DNA from: a virus
Direction: 5' to 3' (one strand)
Virus record (IMG/VR): IMGVR_UViG_3300024262_000018
Coordinates: 32,001 to 96,000 of that record
Length of the DNA stretch: 64,000 nucleotides
Numbering within the stretch: position 1 is the first letter of the stretch; each line of letters starts with the position of its first letter. This document shows positions 15,579-63,087 of this stretch, piece after piece. Made by a program: the position numbers and the translations under genes. Under the pieces are notes generated by a model. It was not told the DNA's origin, did not search any database, and saw nothing but the letters and a program-made list of their open reading frames with translations.

Positions 15579-15652
15579 CGGAGTGTGGGCTAACGGCTGG
15601 CCGCCAGTTTTGGGAACTGGACATCGTGGAGGTTCGAATCCTCTCACTCCGA
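15579..15652 (+). tRNA. tRNA-Pro(TGG)
   Basis: CGGAGTG/CACTCCG acceptor, CCAGT-TTTGGGA-ACTGG, GGTTCGAATCC. Confidence 0.93.
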
Positions 15653-15758
15653 TTATAATGCAGTTCACGCCTCTTTTGGGTGAAAGTTCAAATACCCCAA
15701 AGGAATGTGTGAAAAATATACGAATATACTATAGAAACTTTTTATAAAGGAATATGGT

Positions 15759-16541
15759 ATGAAAGTGACATGTGACCAATGTAAAAAAGAATTTGAAAGA
15801 ACTGAAAGAAAAATAAGGATATATAAAACGCATTTTTGTAGTAGAAAATGCCATACTGATTATGTAAAACAGCACAGTACATATACTGAAGAAAAGTGTT
15901 CACATTGTGGAGAAAGTGTTTTCAGGAATAACGGCCAAAAAAAGAATAGTAAAACTGGCATTTATTTTTGTGGCAAGTTATGCCAAAATAGATATTTGGC
16001 AAAAAAATCAAAACTACACATAAATCCCTTTAGCCACCAAAGACGCAAAAAAAGAGTTCTTGAAAAGGCGAATTATACTTGTCAAAAATGCGGATACAAC
16101 AAAGACAAAAAAATGCTAGACATACACCATGCAGACAAAAATCATCACAACAATGCTTGGGACAATTTAAGATGTATATGTTCATGGTGTCATACCAAAC
16201 ATCATAGAAATGTTGAAGAAATAATCGGTCTTTTATCATTATTTGAAAGCACAATAGAACAAGAAAAAATTTTTACCAAAGAGAACAAAAGATATAGAAT
16301 ACCAGATGGACCCAAAAAGTCTGAACTAAATCCAAATTGGAGAAATTCTATTCGACCTAACCAAAGAAAAGTAGAACGTCCCTCTAAAGAAGAATTAGAG
16401 AAATTGGTTTGGGAAAAATCTACAGAAAAAATAGCAAAAGATTTGGGAGTTAGTGGAGTAGCAATAGCAAAATGGTGCAAAATATATGGAATAACAAAAC
16501 CGCCTAGAGGTTATTGGGCGAAAAGATACGCAGGAAAATAG
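15759..16541 (+). CDS. HNH homing endonuclease with Zn ribbons and C-terminal HTH
   Basis: CxxC repeats, LDIHHADKNHHNNAWDNLRCICSWCHTKHH, C-terminal KPPRGYWAK. Confidence 0.88.
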   Translation: MKVTCDQCKKEFERTERKIRIYKTHFCSRKCHTDYVKQHSTYTEEKCSHCGESVFRNNGQKKNSKTGIYFCGKLCQNRYLAKKSKLHINPFSHQRRKKRVLEKANYTCQKCGYNKDKKMLDIHHADKNHHNNAWDNLRCICSWCHTKHHRNVEEIIGLLSLFESTIEQEKIFTKENKRYRIPDGPKKSELNPNWRNSIRPNQRKVERPSKEELEKLVWEKSTEKIAKDLGVSGVAIAKWCKIYGITKPPRGYWAKRYAGK

Positions 16542-16546
16542 CATTC

Positions 16547-16617
16547 GGGGCCGTATTTCAACGGGAGAATATTTGTTTTGCACGCAGAAGATGTCAGTTC
16601 GATTCTGACCGGCTCCA
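16547..16617 (+). tRNA. tRNA-Ala(TGC)
   Basis: GGGGCCG/CGGCTCC with G3:U70, loop TTTGCAC. Confidence 0.92.
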
Positions 16618-16620
16618 TAA

Positions 16621-16693
16621 GGTCTTATAGTGTAATGGTTTATCACGCAAGATTGTCGATCTTGAGATCGGAGTTCAATTCTCCGTAAGACCG
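16621..16693 (+). tRNA. tRNA-Asp(GTC)
   Basis: GGTCTTA/TAAGACC, CAAGA-TTGTCGA-TCTTG, G73. Confidence 0.93.
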
Positions 16694-16777
16694 TTTAACA
16701 AAGTGCATCTATTTCGCATATCGTGTAGAGGCGAAACTTAATTGGCAAGGTTGCCTCCGTTAAAAAGGAAGAACAAA

Positions 16778-17772
16778 ATGACTAGATACAAAGAAATTGA
16801 AGAAGCAATCAAAACAACAGAGAAAATGATATCAAGCATTGAATGTGATCGTAATTTCGATGGACCTGCGACTATTAAACAAATTTTAGAAAATCAAATA
16901 ATAATTATAAAATTACTTTATTATTCTAAAAACCAATCAACAACAACTATAGAGATGGAGGCATAATATGAAACTTTATTTTTTAGATAAGTGGGGATGG
17001 CCTGTTGAAAGAATTAAAGGAAGATATGTTGTTAATTTTTTACGTCTTTTAATTTATACGCGAAAAATAGCAACAAAAAAGCAATGGGAGACGCGACTTA
17101 GTAAGCATATGAAAAGGATAAAAGCAGGCGAAGGAGGTTCATGCTCACAACAGGTAATAGAAACAGATAGTAAAAAAACGGAGGAGAAGCTCAATGGTTG
17201 ATTTAGGACCAGTAGAAGAAGGATATCTAACTGAAAATGAAGCAAAAGCCCGTGCGCAGATTGATATTAAATATTATAAATTATATTGCATAAAAGAAAA
17301 AATAGTAAAAGATCTTCTGCTTAAAGTCGCATTAGAAAAAATGTTTAACGAAATAGAAACAAGTAACGAAGGGCGGCGATGGACGGAAGCAGAAATTAAA
17401 GAAAAATTAGATCAATTCGTCGGAGTAGAACTTTTATATTATTGGGAGAACAAATACGATGAAAGAGACTACATCGCTATCCATTGAAGAAATGGAAAAT
17501 ATAAAATGAAAATTAGCGGTCCCATACAAATATTTGAAACATATGACGAAGCCATTGATTTTTTATATAAACATATTAAAACATATGACTTATCTTATAT
17601 TTCAGAAGATATAAAAAAAGATATTTTACATGATGCGTCTGGACCTGTTCACTTTAATATTCTGCTTAGGCACACAGAGTGGGCATCAAGCGATATAAAA
17701 AATGAATGTGATAGACAAGTAGGCTGGAACCTCTTAAGATATTTAGAATGGAAAGCAAAAAATGAAAAATGA
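16778..17772 (+). CDS. run of four small hypothetical proteins (16778-16966, 16968-17201, 17194-17487, 17506-17772)
   Basis: contiguous short ORFs with SD-like sequences. Confidence 0.5.
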
Positions 17773-18112
17773 CGAATCAATGACGCTTAAAAAACTAAAA
17801 GAAATTATAAAATGGGAAACTGATCGACTTACTAAGGCTCGTCCTGGCTCAAAACGAGATCATATTTTTTGGGCAACATTAAAAATTTCAGAAGAAGTTG
17901 GAGAAGTTGTCGAGCAGGTTTTAGCCTCAGAAGGTTTTCAAAGACAACCCAAATTAGATGCTTACAAAAAGGAACATCTTAAACACGAAATTGCTGATGT
18001 TCTTTTAGTCACAATGATTTTAGCAGAACGCTTGGGAATCGATATAGAAGAAGCATTAAAAGAGAAGATAGAGATAGTAGAAAAAAGGACATACGAAGAA
18101 TATAATACATAG
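17762..18112 (+). CDS. mazG: MazG-like nucleotide pyrophosphohydrolase
   Basis: KISEEVGEV...HEIADVL motif. Confidence 0.85.
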   Translation: MKNDESMTLKKLKEIIKWETDRLTKARPGSKRDHIFWATLKISEEVGEVVEQVLASEGFQRQPKLDAYKKEHLKHEIADVLLVTMILAERLGIDIEEALKEKIEIVEKRTYEEYNT

Positions 18113-18143
18113 GATCAACACTATTTTTACAGAATATTAAATT

Positions 18144-18201
18144 ATGAATATATACATAAAACACATTCTCCCCTTCCTTTGAGTTAGTTCAACTTAAAGG
18201 A
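18144..18201 (+). promoter_or_regulatory. uORF MNIYIKHILPFL with SD-sequestering hairpin
   Basis: uORF 18144-18182; 11-bp stem 18175-18185/18191-18201 covers the AAGGA SD of the gene at 18210. Confidence 0.55.
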
Positions 18202-18209
18202 GACACAAT

Positions 18210-18650
18210 ATGGGAAGTTTTAGGCACCCAAGGACTCAACAAGAAAAAAGGCAGAATCAGAATTGCGAATATTGTCGTCCTGCACGAAGACCTCATAATC
18301 TGATAGACGCTTGGGATGATGATCGTAAACATACTGACAAATGTTGGAAGAACTACAGAAAAACTCAATATAAAGTAAAAGCCCTTCCTAAAAAGAAAAA
18401 GAATAGTTCTTCTTTCGCAAAATCTATGGAGAATAAAGATCATTGGCATTTAAATCACAGATGCCAATATTGGTGTCATCGTCGTTTTTACGAAAATAAA
18501 TGCAAAGGCTGTGAAGATAGAGAATTGAATAGAAAAGAATATGAGCAAAGAGAGTTTAAAAAATTGCAGGCTCAATATGCGTTAGAACAAAAAGAGCGTC
18601 AACGAGAATGGAATAAAGAGTGTTACGAGTATTATTGGCATGGAAACTAA
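18210..18650 (+). CDS. basic Cys/His-rich hypothetical protein
   Basis: 146 aa, AAGGAG SD. Confidence 0.65.
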   Translation: MGSFRHPRTQQEKRQNQNCEYCRPARRPHNLIDAWDDDRKHTDKCWKNYRKTQYKVKALPKKKKNSSSFAKSMENKDHWHLNHRCQYWCHRRFYENKCKGCEDRELNRKEYEQREFKKLQAQYALEQKERQREWNKECYEYYWHGN

Positions 18651-18978
18651 AAAACAAAAACTGAAAGAATTAAGAAGATTATTTAGAGAACAAGTTCTTA
18701 AAAGGGACAATAACCAATGCGCATTTTGCGATTGCAAAGAAGATCTTGATGCTCATCATATAACAAATAGAAATTATATGCCCATGTATGGATATGTAAT
18801 CTCAAATGGGATAACATTGTGTAATGCTCATCATGCGTTAGCAGAACATTATTCTAGAGCAATTCTTAAAGAAAGTATGGAAGAGTTTTCGCCAGAGAAC
18901 TTATATAAAATAATTGATTCCTCGTATGACAAAGCATTATCAGATTGCGTAAAATTAGAAGAAGGAATTATAGGGTAA
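18640..18978 (+). CDS. small HNH endonuclease
   Basis: RDNNQCAFC...LDAHHI...NGITLCNAHH. Confidence 0.85.
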   Translation: METKKQKLKELRRLFREQVLKRDNNQCAFCDCKEDLDAHHITNRNYMPMYGYVISNGITLCNAHHALAEHYSRAILKESMEEFSPENLYKIIDSSYDKALSDCVKLEEGIIG

Positions 18979-18984
18979 TAAATT

Positions 18985-19055
18985 GGGCTCATAGTGTAGC
19001 AGTAGCACGAAACACTTTGAATGTTTTAGCTCCGGTGCAAATCCGGGTGAGCCTG
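18985..19055 (+). tRNA. tRNA-Gln(TTG)
   Basis: GGGCTCA/TGAGCCT, AAACA-CTTTGAA-TGTTT, G73. Confidence 0.88.
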
Positions 19056-19066
19056 TTAATGTGACT

Positions 19067-19105
19067 AGGGCAGTAGCTTAGTTGGTGGTAGAACACGGCT
19101 TTGAA
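19067..19105 (+). pseudogene. 5' half of a disrupted tRNA (Gln-like)
   Basis: AGGGCAG + D-arm + CGGCTTTGAA; complementary acceptor strand CTGCCCT at 20533-20539. Confidence 0.65.
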
Positions 19106-19114
19106 TATATAAAA

Positions 19115-19486
19115 ATGAAAATACATCCAACTAAAATAACTGAATATCCATATTGGCAGGAAGACTCACCAGAAAAAACGATGAGTGCTTCATACTCAGG
19201 ATACTATAGCATTTGGCCCGACAATGAATATAACGACTGTTCGTTTATTTCTAGTGGATTCAATTTCTCTGGTAATATTGTTATAGCCCTTCGACCAGGT
19301 GGGAATCAAACAGACGGTGATGTTTTTGTAATTTGTAATGGTGACAAATGGGAATCCCCCTCTGGCTATCATCTATCTCATTTTAAGATTTCTGGGGAAA
19401 GATTAAATGCAGACATGTTAGCTCAAAATAGCGGATGTACATATGAATATATACGAAAGACAATAGAAAAAATAATCTGCAAATAA
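19115..19486 (+). CDS. hypothetical protein
   Basis: likely start MKIHPTK; the track's GTG start lies inside the tRNA fragment. Confidence 0.5.
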   Translation: MKIHPTKITEYPYWQEDSPEKTMSASYSGYYSIWPDNEYNDCSFISSGFNFSGNIVIALRPGGNQTDGDVFVICNGDKWESPSGYHLSHFKISGERLNADMLAQNSGCTYEYIRKTIEKIICK

Positions 19487-19490
19487 ATAT

Positions 19491-19573
19491 AGAGTGGTAG
19501 AATAATTGGTAATTCACTGGACTTTGAATCCAGGTCCGAAAGGATAATGAAGGTTCAAATCCTTCCCACTCTA
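19491..19573 (+). tRNA. tRNA-Gln(TTG) with long variable arm
   Basis: AGAGTGG/CCACTCT, CTGGA-CTTTGAA-TCCAG, V-arm GTCCGAAAGGAT. Confidence 0.85.
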
Positions 19574-19586
19574 TTATAATATTTAT

Positions 19587-19669
19587 AGAGCGATAGAGTA
19601 ATTGGCAACTCACCGGACTCTGACTCCGGACTCGTAAGGGTATTGAAGGTTCAAATCCTTCTCGCTCTG
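19587..19669 (+). tRNA. tRNA-Gln(CTG) with long variable arm
   Basis: AGAGCGA/TCGCTCT, CCGGA-CTCTGAC-TCCGG, V-arm ACTCGTAAGGGT. Confidence 0.85.
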
Positions 19670-19756
19670 TTAAACAAATATTTAGTTTCTTGAAGGAAAT
19701 AGCGTAAAGAGTTAGTATGTATTATCACGCTACGTTATTTGCTAAGGAATTATAAA

Positions 19757-38480: not shown

Positions 38481-38552
38481 GCTCATATCCGCTAACTGGT
38501 AAGCGAAAAGACTCTAAATTTTTTAATCGAGGTTCGAGTCCTCGTATGGGCG
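38481..38552 (+). tRNA. amber suppressor tRNA (anticodon CTA)
   Basis: GCTCATA/TATGGGC, D-stem CGCT/AGCG, AAAGA-CTCTAAA-TTTTT, CGAGG-TTCGAGT-CCTCG, G73. Confidence 0.85.
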
Positions 38553-38607: not shown

Positions 38608-38937
38608 ATGACTTAGCTTAACAATAACACGCCGTATATTTATATTATCACTCGAAAAGACTTAACATTCCCACAGAAGGCTGTACAATCTTCTCATGCC
38701 GCAATTGAAGCCGCAAAAGCTTTTTATGACCCATCGGTTATAGATCATCCACATCTGGTTCTATCTGAACTCCCCTCTGAATTACATTTGCTCAAATTTA
38801 TTAATAAATTATCTGCGGAGAGCTTGCGCTTTATTATCTGGAGAGAACCAGATCTAAATGAGGTCACAGCGATTGCAACAGAACCGATTTTTGGAGCAAA
38901 AAGAAAACTTTTTAAGAAACTTCAACTTTTAAAATAA
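38608..38937 (+). CDS. pth2: peptidyl-tRNA hydrolase type 2 with in-frame TAG at codon 3
   Basis: AAGGAG SD, ATG ACT TAG then open frame YIYIITRKDLTFPQKAVQSSHAAIEA...WREPDLNEVTAIATEP; not in ORF track. Confidence 0.8.
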
Positions 38938-58058: not shown

Positions 58059-59087
58059 TTAGATATCTAAACAAAAACAAGAGACATCGAATTTATTTTC
58101 TAATATCTCTATAATTTCAAGTTGAGAATTTTTATTCCTTGTTAAAATTTGAGCAGAACCATCTCCTTGACTGCCTACTCCTTTTGCTCCATACATTAAA
58201 TCTTGTATTGAAGACTCATATAAAATAGAATGCAATTTAGGGGCTATAAGTTCTTTTGGACAATAAGAAGTTAAATATTGATCAAAATTATATTGAGATT
58301 GTTTCATTAAACTTCCTAATGTTTTAAAATCTCCGATTTTCAGGCATTTTACCGCAGACATTACGATTTTTTTATTTTCTATTCCTAAAACGCTTTGTTT
58401 TTTATAATCTTCATTTTCGATAGCAAATGGATATCCTTTATTGAGAGCAGACAGGATTCTGGGAGTGTTCTTTGACGCGTGCAAATCTACGATTATTATA
58501 AATAAATTATTTTTAATTTGTAGCGGTACGCTTTTTAATTCGTCCCCATCAAAAATCAGCAAAGTTGGTTTATTATAGGCGCACGACTGATCCATTTTTC
58601 CGCATCTAGAAGGCGTTGTGATTTCTCCTAAATAAGCCATTTCCATTTCTTGAGGAATCGTCCATCCTAAATTAAATAATGCGTTGTACGCCCTTGTGAC
58701 AAGCACACAAATAGAAGCAGAGCTAGAGAGTCCCTTTTTAATAGGAAGTGTAGAATTATAATTATCAATTTCTATTCCTGGCATATCTTTTTGGGTAAGA
58801 GATATTTGATATAGAGTTCCAGCAATATAATTATAAAAATCAGTAGATTTGGCTAGTTCTAGCAACTTATGAGGATCTAAGTCTATTTCTTTTATTAAAT
58901 TATCTTTTAAAATGAATCTACAGACTTTTTTGCGGATTTTTTTTACTCTTGCATAATTGCCTTGATTTGTAGGGCAGACAATTGCATAGCCTTTTTCTAA
59001 TTTTGAATTTTGACGACGATAACCGCCAGCCCAATCGCTATGTTCACCTAATAGACATAATCTTCCGGGAACGAATAATTCAATCAT
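58059..59087 (-). CDS. GHMP-family sugar kinase
   Basis: PGRLCLLGEHSD, PIKKGLSSSAS, CGKMDQ, GAKGVGSQGDG. Confidence 0.9.
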   Translation of the reverse strand: MIELFVPGRLCLLGEHSDWAGGYRRQNSKLEKGYAIVCPTNQGNYARVKKIRKKVCRFILKDNLIKEIDLDPHKLLELAKSTDFYNYIAGTLYQISLTQKDMPGIEIDNYNSTLPIKKGLSSSASICVLVTRAYNALFNLGWTIPQEMEMAYLGEITTPSRCGKMDQSCAYNKPTLLIFDGDELKSVPLQIKNNLFIIIVDLHASKNTPRILSALNKGYPFAIENEDYKKQSVLGIENKKIVMSAVKCLKIGDFKTLGSLMKQSQYNFDQYLTSYCPKELIAPKLHSILYESSIQDLMYGAKGVGSQGDGSAQILTRNKNSQLEIIEILENKFDVSCFCLDI

Positions 59088-59461: not shown

Positions 59462-60181
59462 ATGATAAAGAATCTATTTCCATTATTAATTATTTTATTA
59501 ATGACTTGTTCACTTACGGTCCAAAAAGCGGGCGGTGCCTGAGCGGGTAGCGGCTGTGGACCCACGGGTGGTTCAACTCCAGTAAAACCGACTCCAGCTA
59601 GTTGTGCGGCCACATTCACAGGATGGAATATCGGTACTAATAATTCTGCTCCTACTGTTCTTCTAAATGCGGTTCCAAATAAAATGTCATCTATCGCAAG
59701 CTTTATAGCAAGCAATATTGACGATGAAAAAGCGAAGAAGGGAATACTTAATCCTATTCCGACTATTAATGAATTAGTCCCGATTTTAAAAATTGGCGAT
59801 AAAATTAAAATAGATTTTGTATATGTTGGAAAACGATACTGGATAAATAGAGTAACGCTTCTGAATAAAAAGTCTTCTATCTATGATGATGCAAATAGCA
59901 GCAGCATATCATTTAAAACAGATAGTATTAGATTAGTTAAAAATAATACAAGACATGCTTTAAGAGTTACAAGAGGCACGCTATCATGGATGTTTTTGGT
60001 TCCATCTATAACGAAAACCGATACTAAAACAGGAAAGACTACTGAGATAAGCGACCCTAATATCTTGGCTAAAATTAAACAATTTAAAACAGGAGAGAAT
60101 GTTTTTATCGATTACGAGACGGTAAAATATACTTTTATTTTAAAAGATATTCGTCCGGTAAAAACAAAATCAAAAAAATGA
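59462..60181 (+). CDS. secreted protein with in-frame TGA at codon 27 (candidate selenoprotein)
   Basis: signal peptide MIKNLFPLLIILLMTCSLTVQKAGGA, TGA 59540-59542, then open and in frame with track ORF 59684..60181. Confidence 0.6.
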
Positions 60182-60948
60182 AAATATTATTACTTATATT
60201 CGTTCTCTTGTTAGGTTGTGACAAAACAAATAATATGTTTTATTATTACAATGGAGAATCTCCATCATTACCAATAGTGAGGAAAATAAGTAATTCTACA
60301 GTAGACATATATGATTATAAGAACGCAGGAACAGGTACAATACTAAAAAAAACAAAAGAACATGCCTATATCCTTACTTGTGCTCATGTAATAGCAAACA
60401 GAAAGAGAAAACACACTCCTATATTCGATTTTAAGGCGTTAGGCCAATATAATATAACCCCGAAAACAACTTTTCTTGAATCCATTATTAAACCTCTTTT
60501 AGTAAAACAAACTAAATGGGTAGATGGACTGCCAATAACTTACTCACATAGTGCTGATATATTTTTTCTAGATAGGTCGGTCGATATCTGTATCCTCAGA
60601 ATAAATGGAAAAATTTATGGAGAAGAGATATCTCCATATAATAATAGTACAGTCGTTCCAACAGGAACAGAAGTTTATCATGTCGGTAATCTTTTTGGAA
60701 GTTTAAATTATTCTGTGACATCAGGGATTATTTCTCATAATTCTCGCGGATTATTTGGAGAAAGAATACAAGTAGATATAGATGTTACATTTGGTTCTAG
60801 TGGCGGCGGCATTTTTACAAAAGATAAAGGCGAATATGTCGGGATGGTGACCGAAAAAGCCACAAGGGATAGTAGTATTGCTATTATTATTCCTATTAAA
60901 AAGATAATAAAATGGCTCGAAGTTTACAGCGTCGAAAGAAATTTTTAA
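60178..60948 (+). CDS. trypsin-like serine protease, probable lipoprotein
   Basis: LLGC lipobox, ILTCAHV, DICIL, GSSGGG. Confidence 0.85.
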   Translation: MKILLLIFVLLLGCDKTNNMFYYYNGESPSLPIVRKISNSTVDIYDYKNAGTGTILKKTKEHAYILTCAHVIANRKRKHTPIFDFKALGQYNITPKTTFLESIIKPLLVKQTKWVDGLPITYSHSADIFFLDRSVDICILRINGKIYGEEISPYNNSTVVPTGTEVYHVGNLFGSLNYSVTSGIISHNSRGLFGERIQVDIDVTFGSSGGGIFTKDKGEYVGMVTEKATRDSSIAIIIPIKKIIKWLEVYSVERNF

Positions 60949-61179: not shown

Positions 61180-61201
61180 GAAAAATTAATATGAGTTCTA
61201 T

Positions 61202-61285
61202 GGGTTGGTTGAGCAACTGGACGCTCTGGCGACTGTAACTCGTCCGTCCGAAAGGACATTGCAGGTTCGAGTCCTGTCCAACCCG
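61202..61285 (+). tRNA. tRNA-Tyr(GTA)
   Basis: GGGTTGG/CCAACCC, loop CTGTAAC, V-arm. Confidence 0.9.
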
Positions 61286-61292
61286 GTGATAT

Positions 61293-61382
61293 ACCCTTGT
61301 AGCAGAATTGGCTTATGCGATTGACTTAAAATCAATTGAGGAGTATAAACTCCTCGTGTGGGTTCGACCCCCGCCAAGGGTA
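61293..61382 (+). tRNA. tRNA-Leu(TAA)
   Basis: ACCCTTG/CAAGGGT, ATTGA-CTTAAAA-TCAAT, long V-arm, A73. Confidence 0.9.
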
Positions 61383-61388
61383 TTACTT

Positions 61389-61476
61389 GCTCCTGTGGCG
61401 TAATTAGCAGCCGCGCTAGGTTTAGACCCTAGTGGGAATATCAAATCCCGTGCTGGTGCAACTCCAGTCAGGAGTA
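61389..61476 (+). tRNA. tRNA-Leu(TAG)
   Basis: GCTCCTG/CAGGAGT, CTAGG-TTTAGAC-CCTAG. Confidence 0.9.
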
Positions 61477-61483
61477 CTTATCT

Positions 61484-61569
61484 GCCCCTTTGGTGTAATT
61501 GGAAGCCACGATAGTTTCAAGAACTATTGCACTTTAACGTGCGTCTCGGTTCGAGTCCGGGAAGGGGCA
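61484..61569 (+). tRNA. tRNA-Leu(CAA)
   Basis: GCCCCTT/AAGGGGC, ATAGT-TTCAAGA-ACTAT. Confidence 0.9.
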
Positions 61570-61613
61570 TTTATATATTTTTCGCGCAAAATTATTTTCA
61601 AAGTGTAAAACAG

Positions 61614-61698
61614 GGAAAGTAAAGTTCATAGGTTGAGCCACCGTCTGCTAAATGGTTGGAGTGAGAAATCGCTTGTGTTTCGATTACACTGCTTTCCG
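61614..61698 (+). tRNA. tRNA-Ser(GCT)
   Basis: GGAAAGT/GCTTTCC, loop CTGCTAA, V-arm, G73. Confidence 0.85.
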
Positions 61699-61714
61699 TT
61701 AATTAGGAAATAAA

Positions 61715-62296
61715 ATGAAAAAAGAACATTTTGATTATGGTTCCTATAAGAAATATATAAACCGCCAAACTAAGCTAGCCTCTCAAACAGTTTTCAAAAC
61801 TCTTAGAGATAAGAAGTTTATCGAAGAAAGAGTTAAAGATCTCCTATCTCTTTATCCTAATTATAAAAATGTTTTATGCTTAGGATCTAGACATCCAGTA
61901 GAAGTGGAAGCGTTTTTAACTGCTGGTTGTTCTGCTATAGGTATTGATCTTTTTGAAACGCTACCACATATTATAAAATGCGATATGGCGAAGATGTATG
62001 AAAACTCAATACTTCGAAAAAGAAAACCATTTGATATCATATATATGAGCCATTCTTTAGAACATTGTTTAAATATCGAAGGGCTATTACAAGGAATTCA
62101 ATGGAGTAATGCGACAGTCTTATATATAAGAGTTCCTATAAAGAATAAACCTGAAAAATGGGATTGCACATTATTAGAATTTATGCTTCCAGATGGTAAT
62201 CCCAATACGATAGAAGAATTATTTACCGGATGGACTCTTAAGGAGTTTACTCCGCTAAGTAATGAAAAGATTTTTATTTTAGAAAAGAGGAAATAA
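61715..62296 (+). CDS. class I SAM-dependent methyltransferase
   Basis: VLCLGSR..GIDL..CD..FDIIYMSHSLEH. Confidence 0.8.
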   Translation: MKKEHFDYGSYKKYINRQTKLASQTVFKTLRDKKFIEERVKDLLSLYPNYKNVLCLGSRHPVEVEAFLTAGCSAIGIDLFETLPHIIKCDMAKMYENSILRKRKPFDIIYMSHSLEHCLNIEGLLQGIQWSNATVLYIRVPIKNKPEKWDCTLLEFMLPDGNPNTIEELFTGWTLKEFTPLSNEKIFILEKRK

Positions 62297-62297
62297 A

Positions 62298-62609
62298 ATG
62301 TCAGCATATTTTGTAGATTTAGATGGAACATTGTTTGAGTTTGGCACAGATATCTTCTTGCCAGGGACTAAAGAGTTTTTAGAGTTTATTAAAGAAAACA
62401 ATCATCAACTTATACTAACAACTAGAAGGGGCGATTGGAGTGGGGTTTTTTCAAAAGAAAGCACTTTAAAAGCCCTTAAAGATCATGGTATAGAATATCA
62501 TAGTATTATTTTTGGAGTTGATAGTCCTAGAATTGTTGTGAATGACGACGGATGCTCAGCTATTAATGTTATAACTAATATTGGTATGGAGAAAAAAGAT
62601 TATGAATGA
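62298..62609 (+). CDS. small HAD-superfamily phosphatase
   Basis: FVDLDGTL, LTTRR, VNDD. Confidence 0.8.
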   Translation: MSAYFVDLDGTLFEFGTDIFLPGTKEFLEFIKENNHQLILTTRRGDWSGVFSKESTLKALKDHGIEYHSIIFGVDSPRIVVNDDGCSAINVITNIGMEKKDYE

Positions 62610-62817
62610 GATTAAAATTGAATTTAAATCAAAGAGATATGGAGATACATTAGATGTCGGATATGGATATTCCAATAGCGAGGTTTTTGAAGGAGAGTTA
62701 AAAGAAGTTATTCGCAGGCTAGTTGACATAGACAAAAAATGTTATAAATATAATAAAGTAAATGTTTCTGTTGACCTTGTGGACGGGTATATAGAATTTA
62801 TTGGAATTAAAAATTAA
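62602..62817 (+). CDS. hypothetical protein
   Basis: likely start MNEIK. Confidence 0.5.
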   Translation: MNEIKIEFKSKRYGDTLDVGYGYSNSEVFEGELKEVIRRLVDIDKKCYKYNKVNVSVDLVDGYIEFIGIKN

Positions 62818-62825
62818 TAATAACT

Positions 62826-62911
62826 GGATGAACTGGACATCGGTGAGTCCACTTGTTTTGAAAACAAGCAGGCCCGAAAAGGTCTTGGGGGTTCGAATCC
62901 CTCTTCATCCG
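62826..62911 (+). tRNA. tRNA-Ser(TGA)
   Basis: GGATGAA/TTCATCC, CTTGT-TTTGAAA-ACAAG, V-arm, G73. Confidence 0.9.
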
Positions 62912-62915
62912 GTAT

Positions 62916-63002
62916 GGAAGAACTGGGTATTTAGCGAACCCACTCGTCTCGAAAACGAGCAAGCCTGAAAGGGTTTTGAAAGTGCGAATCTTTCTTCTTC
63001 CG
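62916..63002 (+). tRNA. tRNA-Ser(CGA)
   Basis: GGAAGAA/TTCTTCC, CTCGT-CTCGAAA-ACGAG, V-arm, G73. Confidence 0.9.
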
Positions 63003-63087
63003 TTTAATTAATAAAATATAAAAATATTGAGTTGTGGCGTTTAAAAAGTTATAAAGAGGTATAAAACTTTGATGTAGGAGAAAAACT

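Follow-up and report, generated by a model that had tools for sequence, protein, structure and literature searches.

Can a bacterial virus carry a gene that is translated in full only if UGA is read as selenocysteine (Sec)? The question is raised by a plus-strand gene at 59462-60181 of a 64,000-nucleotide stretch of viral DNA (the window; bases 32001-96000 of the single 113,959-bp virus record IMGVR_UViG_3300024262_000018, which has a GC content of 35% and is estimated by CheckV to be 26% complete). The record encodes a large terminase, a ribonucleotide reductase, a helicase and 30 tRNAs, identifying it as a phage. The original prediction, made from the letters of the sequence, held that a TGA interrupting this gene specifies Sec, which the host's SelB inserts into an exported protein at a Sec insertion sequence (SECIS) hairpin within the open reading frame (ORF). 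Here we report that the gene belongs to a family of Planctomycetaceae proteins which is very probably a genuine, hitherto undescribed selenoprotein family, and we lean towards the view that the phage copy arose from this family, has retained the UGA together with a SECIS-type hairpin, and has its UGA decoded as Sec.

The gene and its Planctomycetaceae homologs

Inspection of the sequence verified an ATG at 59462, a single in-frame TGA at 59540-59542 (codon 27, the proposed Sec codon) and an open frame from there to 60181, amounting to 239 codons and a TGA stop (60179-60181). The gene starts 16 nt past the TAG stop of the upstream ORF. The predicted hydrophobic N-terminus is present (MIKN, a 14-residue hydrophobic core, then TVQKAGGA), as is the context A-G-G-A-U-A-G-S-G-C around the TGA. 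We assigned codons 1-26 (59462-59539) to a signal peptide by inspection, based on the Lys-containing n-region, the hydrophobic core and the G-G-A preceding the UGA. A lipoprotein reading of the stretch 'LLMTC' was rejected, the Cys being Phe in the relative P0001.

Ordinary ORF finding under translation table 11, the code used for all ORF counts here, yields only 59684-60181, with a 165-aa product. The frame reaches further upstream: 212 codons are open 3' of the TGA in DNA of 34% GC, no in-frame ATG, GTG or TTG occurs after the TGA before codon 75, and codon 75 lies inside the first of two predicted barrels, whose first strands (residues 44-72) are encoded upstream of the ATG at 59684. The 165-aa product would therefore be neither complete nor exported, because these strands and the signal peptide lie upstream of its start. 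Both ends and the length of the extended gene agree with the 239-aa relatives P0001 and P0009; P0001 shares 18 of the 26 signal-peptide residues, and conservation between the two extends over residues 28-74.

Homologs with a TGA aligned at codon 27, which the original prediction had named as a check, were found on 14 contigs (12 distinct sequences, from sediment metagenomes and from metagenome-assembled genomes (MAGs) of Planctomycetaceae). Six relatives of ~280 aa, retrieved by a word-based protein search, have one common internal Met or Val as their annotated start; in the DNA of this group, the frame runs upstream through a TGA at the phage's exact column and on into a signal peptide. These loci (L001-L009, termed subgroup 1) stem from metagenome contigs and Planctomycetaceae MAGs, and their proteins are 44-59% identical to that of the phage. 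A survey of 92 Planctomycetaceae genomes revealed more divergent loci in five genomes (L044-L048, subgroup 2), each with one in-frame TGA at the equivalent site, directly after a membrane segment. Since subgroup-1 genes themselves terminate with TGA, UGA also serves as an ordinary stop codon in these organisms of 55-65% GC.

SelA was present in 8/8 genomes carrying the TGA form as compared to 38/92 Planctomycetaceae genomes (hypergeometric p ~5e-4 by our own arithmetic, which ignores shared ancestry), and was absent from three of the five genomes having only stop-free forms. The MAGs G001-G003 contain selA, selB, selD and a tRNA-Sec scoring 75.6 bits, with the whole set on a single contig in G002. 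Use of Sec by planctomycetes is established (PMC4807772). These incomplete MAGs gave no match to a formate dehydrogenase-type molybdopterin enzyme, Rdx/SelW or GPx, and their SelD is without an internal stop; exported proteins, among them the present family and the peroxiredoxin-like proteins described below, may make up most of their selenoproteome. Together with the 14 TGA-bearing contigs and the hairpin conserved in their RNA, the SelA co-occurrence lends strong support, at the level of the family, to the predicted combination of a Sec codon, an in-ORF SECIS, export and use of host SelB.

An AlphaFold2 (AF2) model computed from a 39-sequence alignment, with a mean predicted local distance difference test score (pLDDT) of 84.6, has residues 1-43 disordered, the signal-peptide region being of low confidence apart from a helix at residues 7-15, and then two barrels that conform to the five-stranded OB beta-barrel. 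Alignments and pLDDT values below 55 up to about residue 43 delimit a flexible, Gly/Pro/Ser/Thr-rich tether with Cys32 at codons 28-43 (59543-59590). Barrel 1 (residues 44-133, 59591-59860) is modelled at pLDDT >90 and has a conserved Cys48 at its start; a U-x4-C spacing is common to the phage, subgroup 1 and L048. In VIA-align comparisons, barrel 1 reached Z scores of 7-9 with SSB/Rim1, Stn1/Ten1, SilF/CusF and YgiW, and ArtB matched residues 136-237 of the model at Z 7.2. The best Foldseek matches, which cover barrel 2 (residues 150-232, 59909-60157) as well, were tandem-OB proteins, namely HIN domains, Teb1 AB and Deinococcus SSB. Matches of this kind are common to OB folds in general and assign no function. 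Neither the phage protein nor the family is covered by a model in Pfam, NCBIfam or PHROG; matches to CusF_Ec from Pfam occur in 4 of 39 family members, at 19-21 bits against a cut-off of 27 and confined to the third barrel.

A search of 401 Planctomycetota genomes (E <= 1e-10) returned the family only in G001, and among the bacteria searched it is confined to one bacterial family. Scans of viral contigs with the protein and tblastn against GenBank phages gave no match, a protein Atlas search with the window's own protein returned nothing reliable (all scores <0.9), and the bacterial loci have no conserved gene neighbourhood. Database entries of the family are truncated N-terminally, with an internal Met or Val start 3' of the TGA; we verified the truncation in P0002 and P0003-P0008 and infer it for P0011, P0018 and P0021. 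Judging from these sequences, the family is systematically mis-annotated and invisible as a secreted protein. L005 (1318-1611) and L006 share one sequence, a 97-codon version with signal peptide, TGA and hairpin (loop GCGGG), in which an internal deletion fuses 'DDKKAM' to a C-terminal 'RASRN' and stop; it is probably a degraded copy.

Hairpins downstream of the UGA

The SECIS-type hairpin conserved in the family, hereafter hairpin A, occupies 59557-59575 of the plus strand, with the stem arms 59557-59563 and 59569-59575 enclosing the loop ACGGG (59564-59568), which starts 21 nt after the UGA. Six of seven stem pairs are kept in the phage (59557-59575, 59558-59574, 59559-59573 as G-U, 59560-59572, 59561-59571 and 59562-59570), while the closing U-A pair (59563/59569) has become a C/U mismatch. 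In an eight-sequence alignment of subgroup 1 including the phage, analysed with RNAalifold and pair counts, the hairpin has 7-8 pairs and the loop ACGGC, again 21 nt after the UGA. Two pairs show compensatory change (U-A to C-G in L007, G-C to A-U in the phage), and 89% of cells pair in the tested register as compared to 9-67% in slid registers. In subgroup 2, the stem is of wholly different sequence and has a single bulged base, yet the A-N-G-G-Y loop recurs, 24-36 nt after the UGA. The loop consists of a codon for Thr (ACG), Lys (AAG) or Arg (AGG) plus the next G, with Ala (GCG) only in L005/L006; since the encoded amino acid varies while the bases are fixed, selection on the RNA is indicated.

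The motif we scanned for was an A-N-G-G-N loop on a stem of seven positions, of which at least six had to pair; stems of seven pairs with one bulge were also accepted. Its background frequency was 0.28/kb in 418 kb of GC-rich loci, giving ~0.006 expected per 22-nt SECIS window, and the motif was found in the SECIS window of 12 of the 13 family sequences. Hairpin A of the phage is one of 20 matches on the plus strand of the 114-kb contig and has the exact subgroup-1 spacing; the Thr codon in its loop, ACG, is rare in the phage (13% of Thr usage). An intrinsic terminator was considered at this place and rejected: no T-run lies 3' of the hairpin, and none was detected.

The hairpin named in the original prediction, CTGTG-GACC-CACGG at 59554-59567 of the plus strand (hairpin B), does exist and starts 11 nt after the TGA, but is not the conserved element: it lacks covariation, three of its five pairs are broken in L007, and its folding energy is 0 to -1.6 kcal/mol in the bacterial homologs. 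Formation of hairpin B excludes hairpin A. In the phage, it has an energy of -3.7 kcal/mol alone and of -9.5 kcal/mol with a lower-stem extension, and a strengthening of G-U to G-C is found in the phage only. With 16 nt from UGA to loop, and a GACC loop with G in first place, it fits the published model discussed below. Either of the two could be the functional hairpin in the phage, hairpin B as a phage-specific alternative.

The bacterial SECIS (bSECIS) model specifies an apical loop of 3-9 nt, a stem of 4-16 bp, a distance of 16-37 nt from the UGA and a G in the first two loop positions, with some elements falling outside it (PMC13188914). Hairpin A lies within the loop-size, stem-length and spacing ranges, with its 5-nt loop, 6 (phage) to 8 pairs and 21-36 nt spacing. 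Relative to the energy criterion of -7.5 kcal/mol or lower, hairpin A in isolation folds at -9.4 to -12.5 kcal/mol in bacteria and at -6.0 kcal/mol in the phage, and the extended hairpin B of the phage is at -9.5 kcal/mol.

The sole SECIS reference in the carrier genomes is an exported peroxiredoxin-like (AhpC/TSA) gene, present in each of G001-G003 (L040 on G001:C79, L039 on G002:C127 and L038 on G003:C221) and bearing one in-frame TGA at the expected peroxidatic Cys ('SSSYT-U-PPFR'). Peroxiredoxin-like proteins are a known selenoprotein type. Two hairpins follow this UGA, one with an 11-bp stem and the loop AGGUUCC or AAGUUCC, 16 nt downstream, and another with an 8-bp stem and the loop AAGGC, 42 nt downstream, the latter found by a scan run after the motif had been defined. 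Either could be the SECIS. In L038, where the first hairpin has the loop AAGUUCC, the first G likewise stands at loop position 3. Because this unrelated gene shares the loop, A-N-G-G-N is probably recognised by the SelB of these bacteria.

Proposed decoding of the UGA in the phage

In a maximum-likelihood tree, the window's protein and P0001 form a pair (100/100) within the Sec-bearing subgroup-1 clade (100/100), with branch lengths of 0.15 and 0.13, respectively, and no rate acceleration. As the phage pair is nested inside the Sec clade, the UGA is ancestral for the phage lineage. That it was carried through the full compositional drift without decay of the frame is hard to explain unless it is decoded. 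Sec forms fall into two well-separated clades, one of which (subgroup 2) has a Thr/Ala group nested inside it; such a topology implies that Sec was either lost more than once or gained twice at one position.

We propose that the gene stems from a family of multi-OB proteins in Planctomycetaceae, exported or anchored in the membrane, with the UGA in two clades, and that the phage copy was probably captured from a Sec-using host of that kind. After capture, it would have drifted to an AT-rich composition and lost the third barrel, which bacterial proteins carry and the phage protein lacks. The predicted product is an exported protein of 239 residues, comprising a signal peptide, a tether of ~17 residues with Sec27, Cys32 and Cys48, and the two OB barrels. 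SelB of the host with Sec-tRNA(Sec) would be recruited by the in-frame hairpin, for which hairpin A is the conserved candidate, and the tethered selenol would act as a redox centre outside the cytoplasm. For Sec decoding by the phage's own host, which was part of the original prediction, we infer as much from the position of the phage copy within the Sec clade and from its retained TGA, loop and six of seven stem pairs.

Several observations weigh against Sec decoding in the phage. P0001, a 239-aa protein of 77% identity found by word-based protein search, is uninterrupted, with Trp at the TGA column; it and its variant P0009 (76-77% identity, at least three contigs from three sources) are called with Trp27. 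P0001 ends at the residue where the window has its TGA stop, so it is either a table-11 call with a real Trp or a gene whose own stop is not TGA. In the basal, AT-rich P0012, an Arg stands beside the Sec column by MAFFT and at the column in a by-eye register. Residues of the kind that the original prediction had listed as contrary evidence (Trp, Arg or Gly) are thus formally present. A single base separates both the Trp and the Arg codon from UGA, as would be seen had Sec decoding been lost in AT-rich carriers and the codon then been patched. The prediction had also considered Cys homologs; an exhaustive profile search gave 46 matches and no such form, whereas selenoproteins usually have one. 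The column holds Thr (P0035, P0036), Trp or Ala (P0031, with Cys one residue before), and Arg adjacent. One selenoprotein with Gly-containing homologs is on record (PMC4807772), so the lack of a Cys form does not exclude membership among selenoproteins.

Of the same bearing, hairpin A of the phage is weaker than its bacterial counterparts and has lost its closing pair, its compensatory change amounts to two synonymous G/C to A/T substitutions, which mutational bias by itself would favour, and its loop has the G's at positions 3-4 (second position only in L047), unlike the bSECIS rule. The GC-rich patch noted in the original prediction is real but modest, the GC content at third codon positions (GC3) being 0.50 over the hairpin against a genome mean of 0.27, only about the 95th percentile of 12-codon windows. 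Neither selA, selB, selD nor tRNA-Sec was found on the phage contig, which represents ~26% of the genome. The statement that the window lacks a tRNA-Sec was thereby verified and extends to the whole 113,959-bp contig; the top-scoring candidates for the Rfam tRNA-Sec model fall short of its cut-off and are the phage's own Ser, Leu, Gln and Pro tRNAs. Finally, the GC content of the phage (35%) is far from the 55-65% of Sec-using carriers.

The Trp and Arg relatives, the lack of Sec genes on the contig, the weakened hairpin and the GC gap would all be accounted for if the bacterial family consisted of true selenoproteins and the phage copy were not Sec-decoded, being either a relic or a source of Trp27 through low-level read-through by tRNA-Trp, in a host without Sec machinery or a compatible SelB. 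We consider this conceivable but doubtful: the ancestral UGA survived a drift from ~60% to ~33% GC with 212 codons open and no rate acceleration, the loop ACGG and six of seven pairs were kept with rare codons, and, without decoding, no start codon gives a complete barrel 1 or export. A further rival is an arrangement of two units, in which a 26-codon leader peptide ends at the TGA and an independent 165-aa protein starts from the ATG at 59684. Table-11 gene finders indeed call only 59684-60181 (and P0002 in the same way), and a weak promoter-like match, no more than expected by chance, lies at 59615-59644. However, every relative shows strong protein-level conservation of residues 28-74, which supply the first strands of barrel 1; no stop interrupts the 239-aa relatives; and a start at 59684 would leave 238 nt 'non-coding' in a tightly packed genome and a product without a signal peptide, all of which renders two units improbable.

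A sequencing or assembly error, or a recent nonsense mutation of a TGG codon as in P0001, would agree with the Trp of P0001 and P0009, and TGG to TGA is a single transition favoured by AT bias. Yet such an event would have had to strike precisely the codon at which 14 homologous contigs have TGA, and its third base at that, with the downstream hairpin kept too, and we judge it very improbable. General reassignment of TGA to Trp or Gly (code 4 or 25), or a stop recoding driven by the phage, might be suspected from the suppressor tRNA(CTA) for amber that the phage encodes, from one gene that apparently needs TAG read-through, from the Gly-rich context of the TGA, and from the possibility that the Trp of P0001 is a code-4 gene call. 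Under table 11, however, the window is densely coding (longest ORFs up to 1,524 aa), 13 ORFs stop at TGA, and a contig-wide search for frames continuing past a stop returned 59462-60181 as the sole real gene requiring TGA read-through. The tRNA-Trp of the phage has the anticodon CCA, no tRNA reading UGA (anticodon UCA) is among the contig's tRNAs, and the bacterial homologs of 55-65% GC use TGA as a stop. General reassignment of TGA is largely refuted, and recoding of either kind is extremely improbable as the explanation of this locus. Sec decoding of the phage UGA is the reading we retain in what follows.

With regard to the surrounding genome, the full phage is estimated at ~440 kb (the contig being 26% of it). 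Terminase relatives reached at most 24% identity among GenBank phages, the best being from a 485-kb uncultured phage (24%), and were absent from IMG/VR; no inference of the host resulted. The 30 tRNAs lie in several arrays (window positions 15579-19670, 61201-63003 and beyond) and include three tRNA-Gln genes, two of them unusually long (85 nt). The amber-suppressor tRNA (anticodon CTA) at 38481-38552 is followed by AAGGAG, 7 nt and ATG ACT TAG CTT at 38608-38619; the TAG (38614-38616) is in frame with an ORF extending to 38937, a gene which apparently needs read-through at codon 3. Elsewhere in the window, TAG is the terminator of 12 ORFs. The candidate gene is flanked on one side by a GHMP-kinase/galactokinase-like gene (58059-59087, minus strand) and on the other by a gene for an exported trypsin-like serine peptidase (60178-60948, plus strand; Pfam Trypsin_2, E = 3e-17; phrog_11383) with an LLGC lipobox-like N-terminus. 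The ATG of the peptidase gene overlaps the candidate's stop as ATGA, so that the two are translationally coupled. Both flanking genes look auxiliary rather than core phage genes.

The flavinylation motif of distant members and relation to known systems

Subgroup 2 and the Sec-free proteins P0035/P0036 have an identical 12-residue membrane segment, continued by MDVEKLEGG-U and MDVDRLEAQ-T, respectively; with the same segment preceding both, Sec and Thr occupy the same position in close homologs. More distant members have 'VDAVTGAT' or 'VDAVTAAT' at that place, with the exact flavinylation motif in P0019 (DAVTGAT) and a G to A change in P0020, P0022 and P0027. The motif recognised by ApbE is D-x-x-[S/T]-G-A-[S/T], with flavin mononucleotide (FMN) esterified to the last residue, and G to A at position 5 is tolerated at ~50% efficiency (PMC12052999, PMC8238504). 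MAFFT, used with no manual adjustment, placed the FMN-acceptor Thr in the Sec column. By hhalign, the barrels of the Sec group and the flavinylation-motif group are homologous (E = 4.5e-49), and the local alignment stops short of the N-terminal motif, so it is from MAFFT that the equivalence of Sec and FMN-Thr is drawn. ApbE was present in 5/5 genomes tested, on contigs other than those of the family genes and thus not adjacent to them; genes for ApbE substrates usually cluster with apbE. The motif is absent from the phage (Q-K-A-G-G-A-U) and from subgroup 2 (E-K-L-E-G-G-U), so the Sec forms are not ApbE substrates. The OB family is not among the substrates described (PMC8238504), and we found no paper linking Sec and flavinylation.

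We hypothesise from these alignments that Sec may replace the flavinylated Thr as a tethered extracytosolic redox group. The 'redox or metal-binding' role originally suggested for the product is likewise hypothetical, its redox part having gained some positional support from the flavinylation-site alignment. More tentative is the combined proposal that Sec took the site of the FMN-Thr, exchanging a flavin for a selenol on a flexible arm, and that a huge phage carries such an auxiliary gene with its SECIS kept and uses the SelB of its host. Should the positional match hold, it would link selenium and flavin chemistry in extracytosolic electron transfer. If the phage gene does need host Sec machinery, it would tie phage fitness to selenium supply and SelB specificity, and a phage Sec gene would be a useful marker for host prediction. 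A-N-G-G-N would be a lineage-specific SECIS loop motif which standard bSECIS rules would miss.

In the literature searched, we found no selenoproteins of bacterial viruses; selenoproteins have been described for cells and a few eukaryotic viruses. Phages and Planctomycetes are unmentioned in a review of selenoproteomes (PMC13188914), as well as in the BSepDB and deep-Sep papers. Based on the sequence comparisons, the bacterial proteins seem to represent a new family of selenoproteins, and one with unusual traits.

How does the family compare with known systems? CusF/SilF and YgiW/BOF are, like the phage protein, exported small beta-barrels (SilF at Z 7.2-7.5, root-mean-square deviation 2.2-2.5 over 70-73 residues; YgiW at Z 7.0), but SSB and Stn1 score equally well or better, and the CusF signal of the family lies in the barrel that the phage protein does not have. 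ApbE-flavinylated proteins (NqrC, RnfG, PplA, DUF2271, DUF3570) offer an analogy in the idea of a redox group tethered outside the cytoplasm, whereas only distant OB members carry the motif, just outside the membrane segment. With phage stop recoding (TAG to Gln, TGA to Trp), the phage shares the suppressor tRNA(CTA) and a gene with TAG at codon 3; its recoding, however, concerns TAG, and TGA, which otherwise terminates, is affected at a single site with a SECIS-type hairpin. The peroxiredoxin-like selenoproteins are similarly exported, with one in-frame UGA and a downstream A-N-G-G-N-type loop on an 8-bp stem; they differ in their thioredoxin-like fold, in having Sec at the catalytic Cys of a T-x-x-C motif and in their two consecutive hairpins. 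Finally, bacterial selenoproteins with an in-ORF SECIS, such as E. coli fdhF, have in common with the family a conserved in-frame UGA, a downstream 5-nt GG loop on a 6-8 bp stem and the strict co-occurrence of selA, selB, selD and tRNA-Sec in bacterial carriers. Compared to these, the present family is new and has no Cys homolog, with Thr, Trp or Arg occupying the column; the G's of its loop are at positions 3-4 rather than in the first two; and the putative Sec resides in a disordered N-terminal tether instead of a folded active site, with one copy on a phage.

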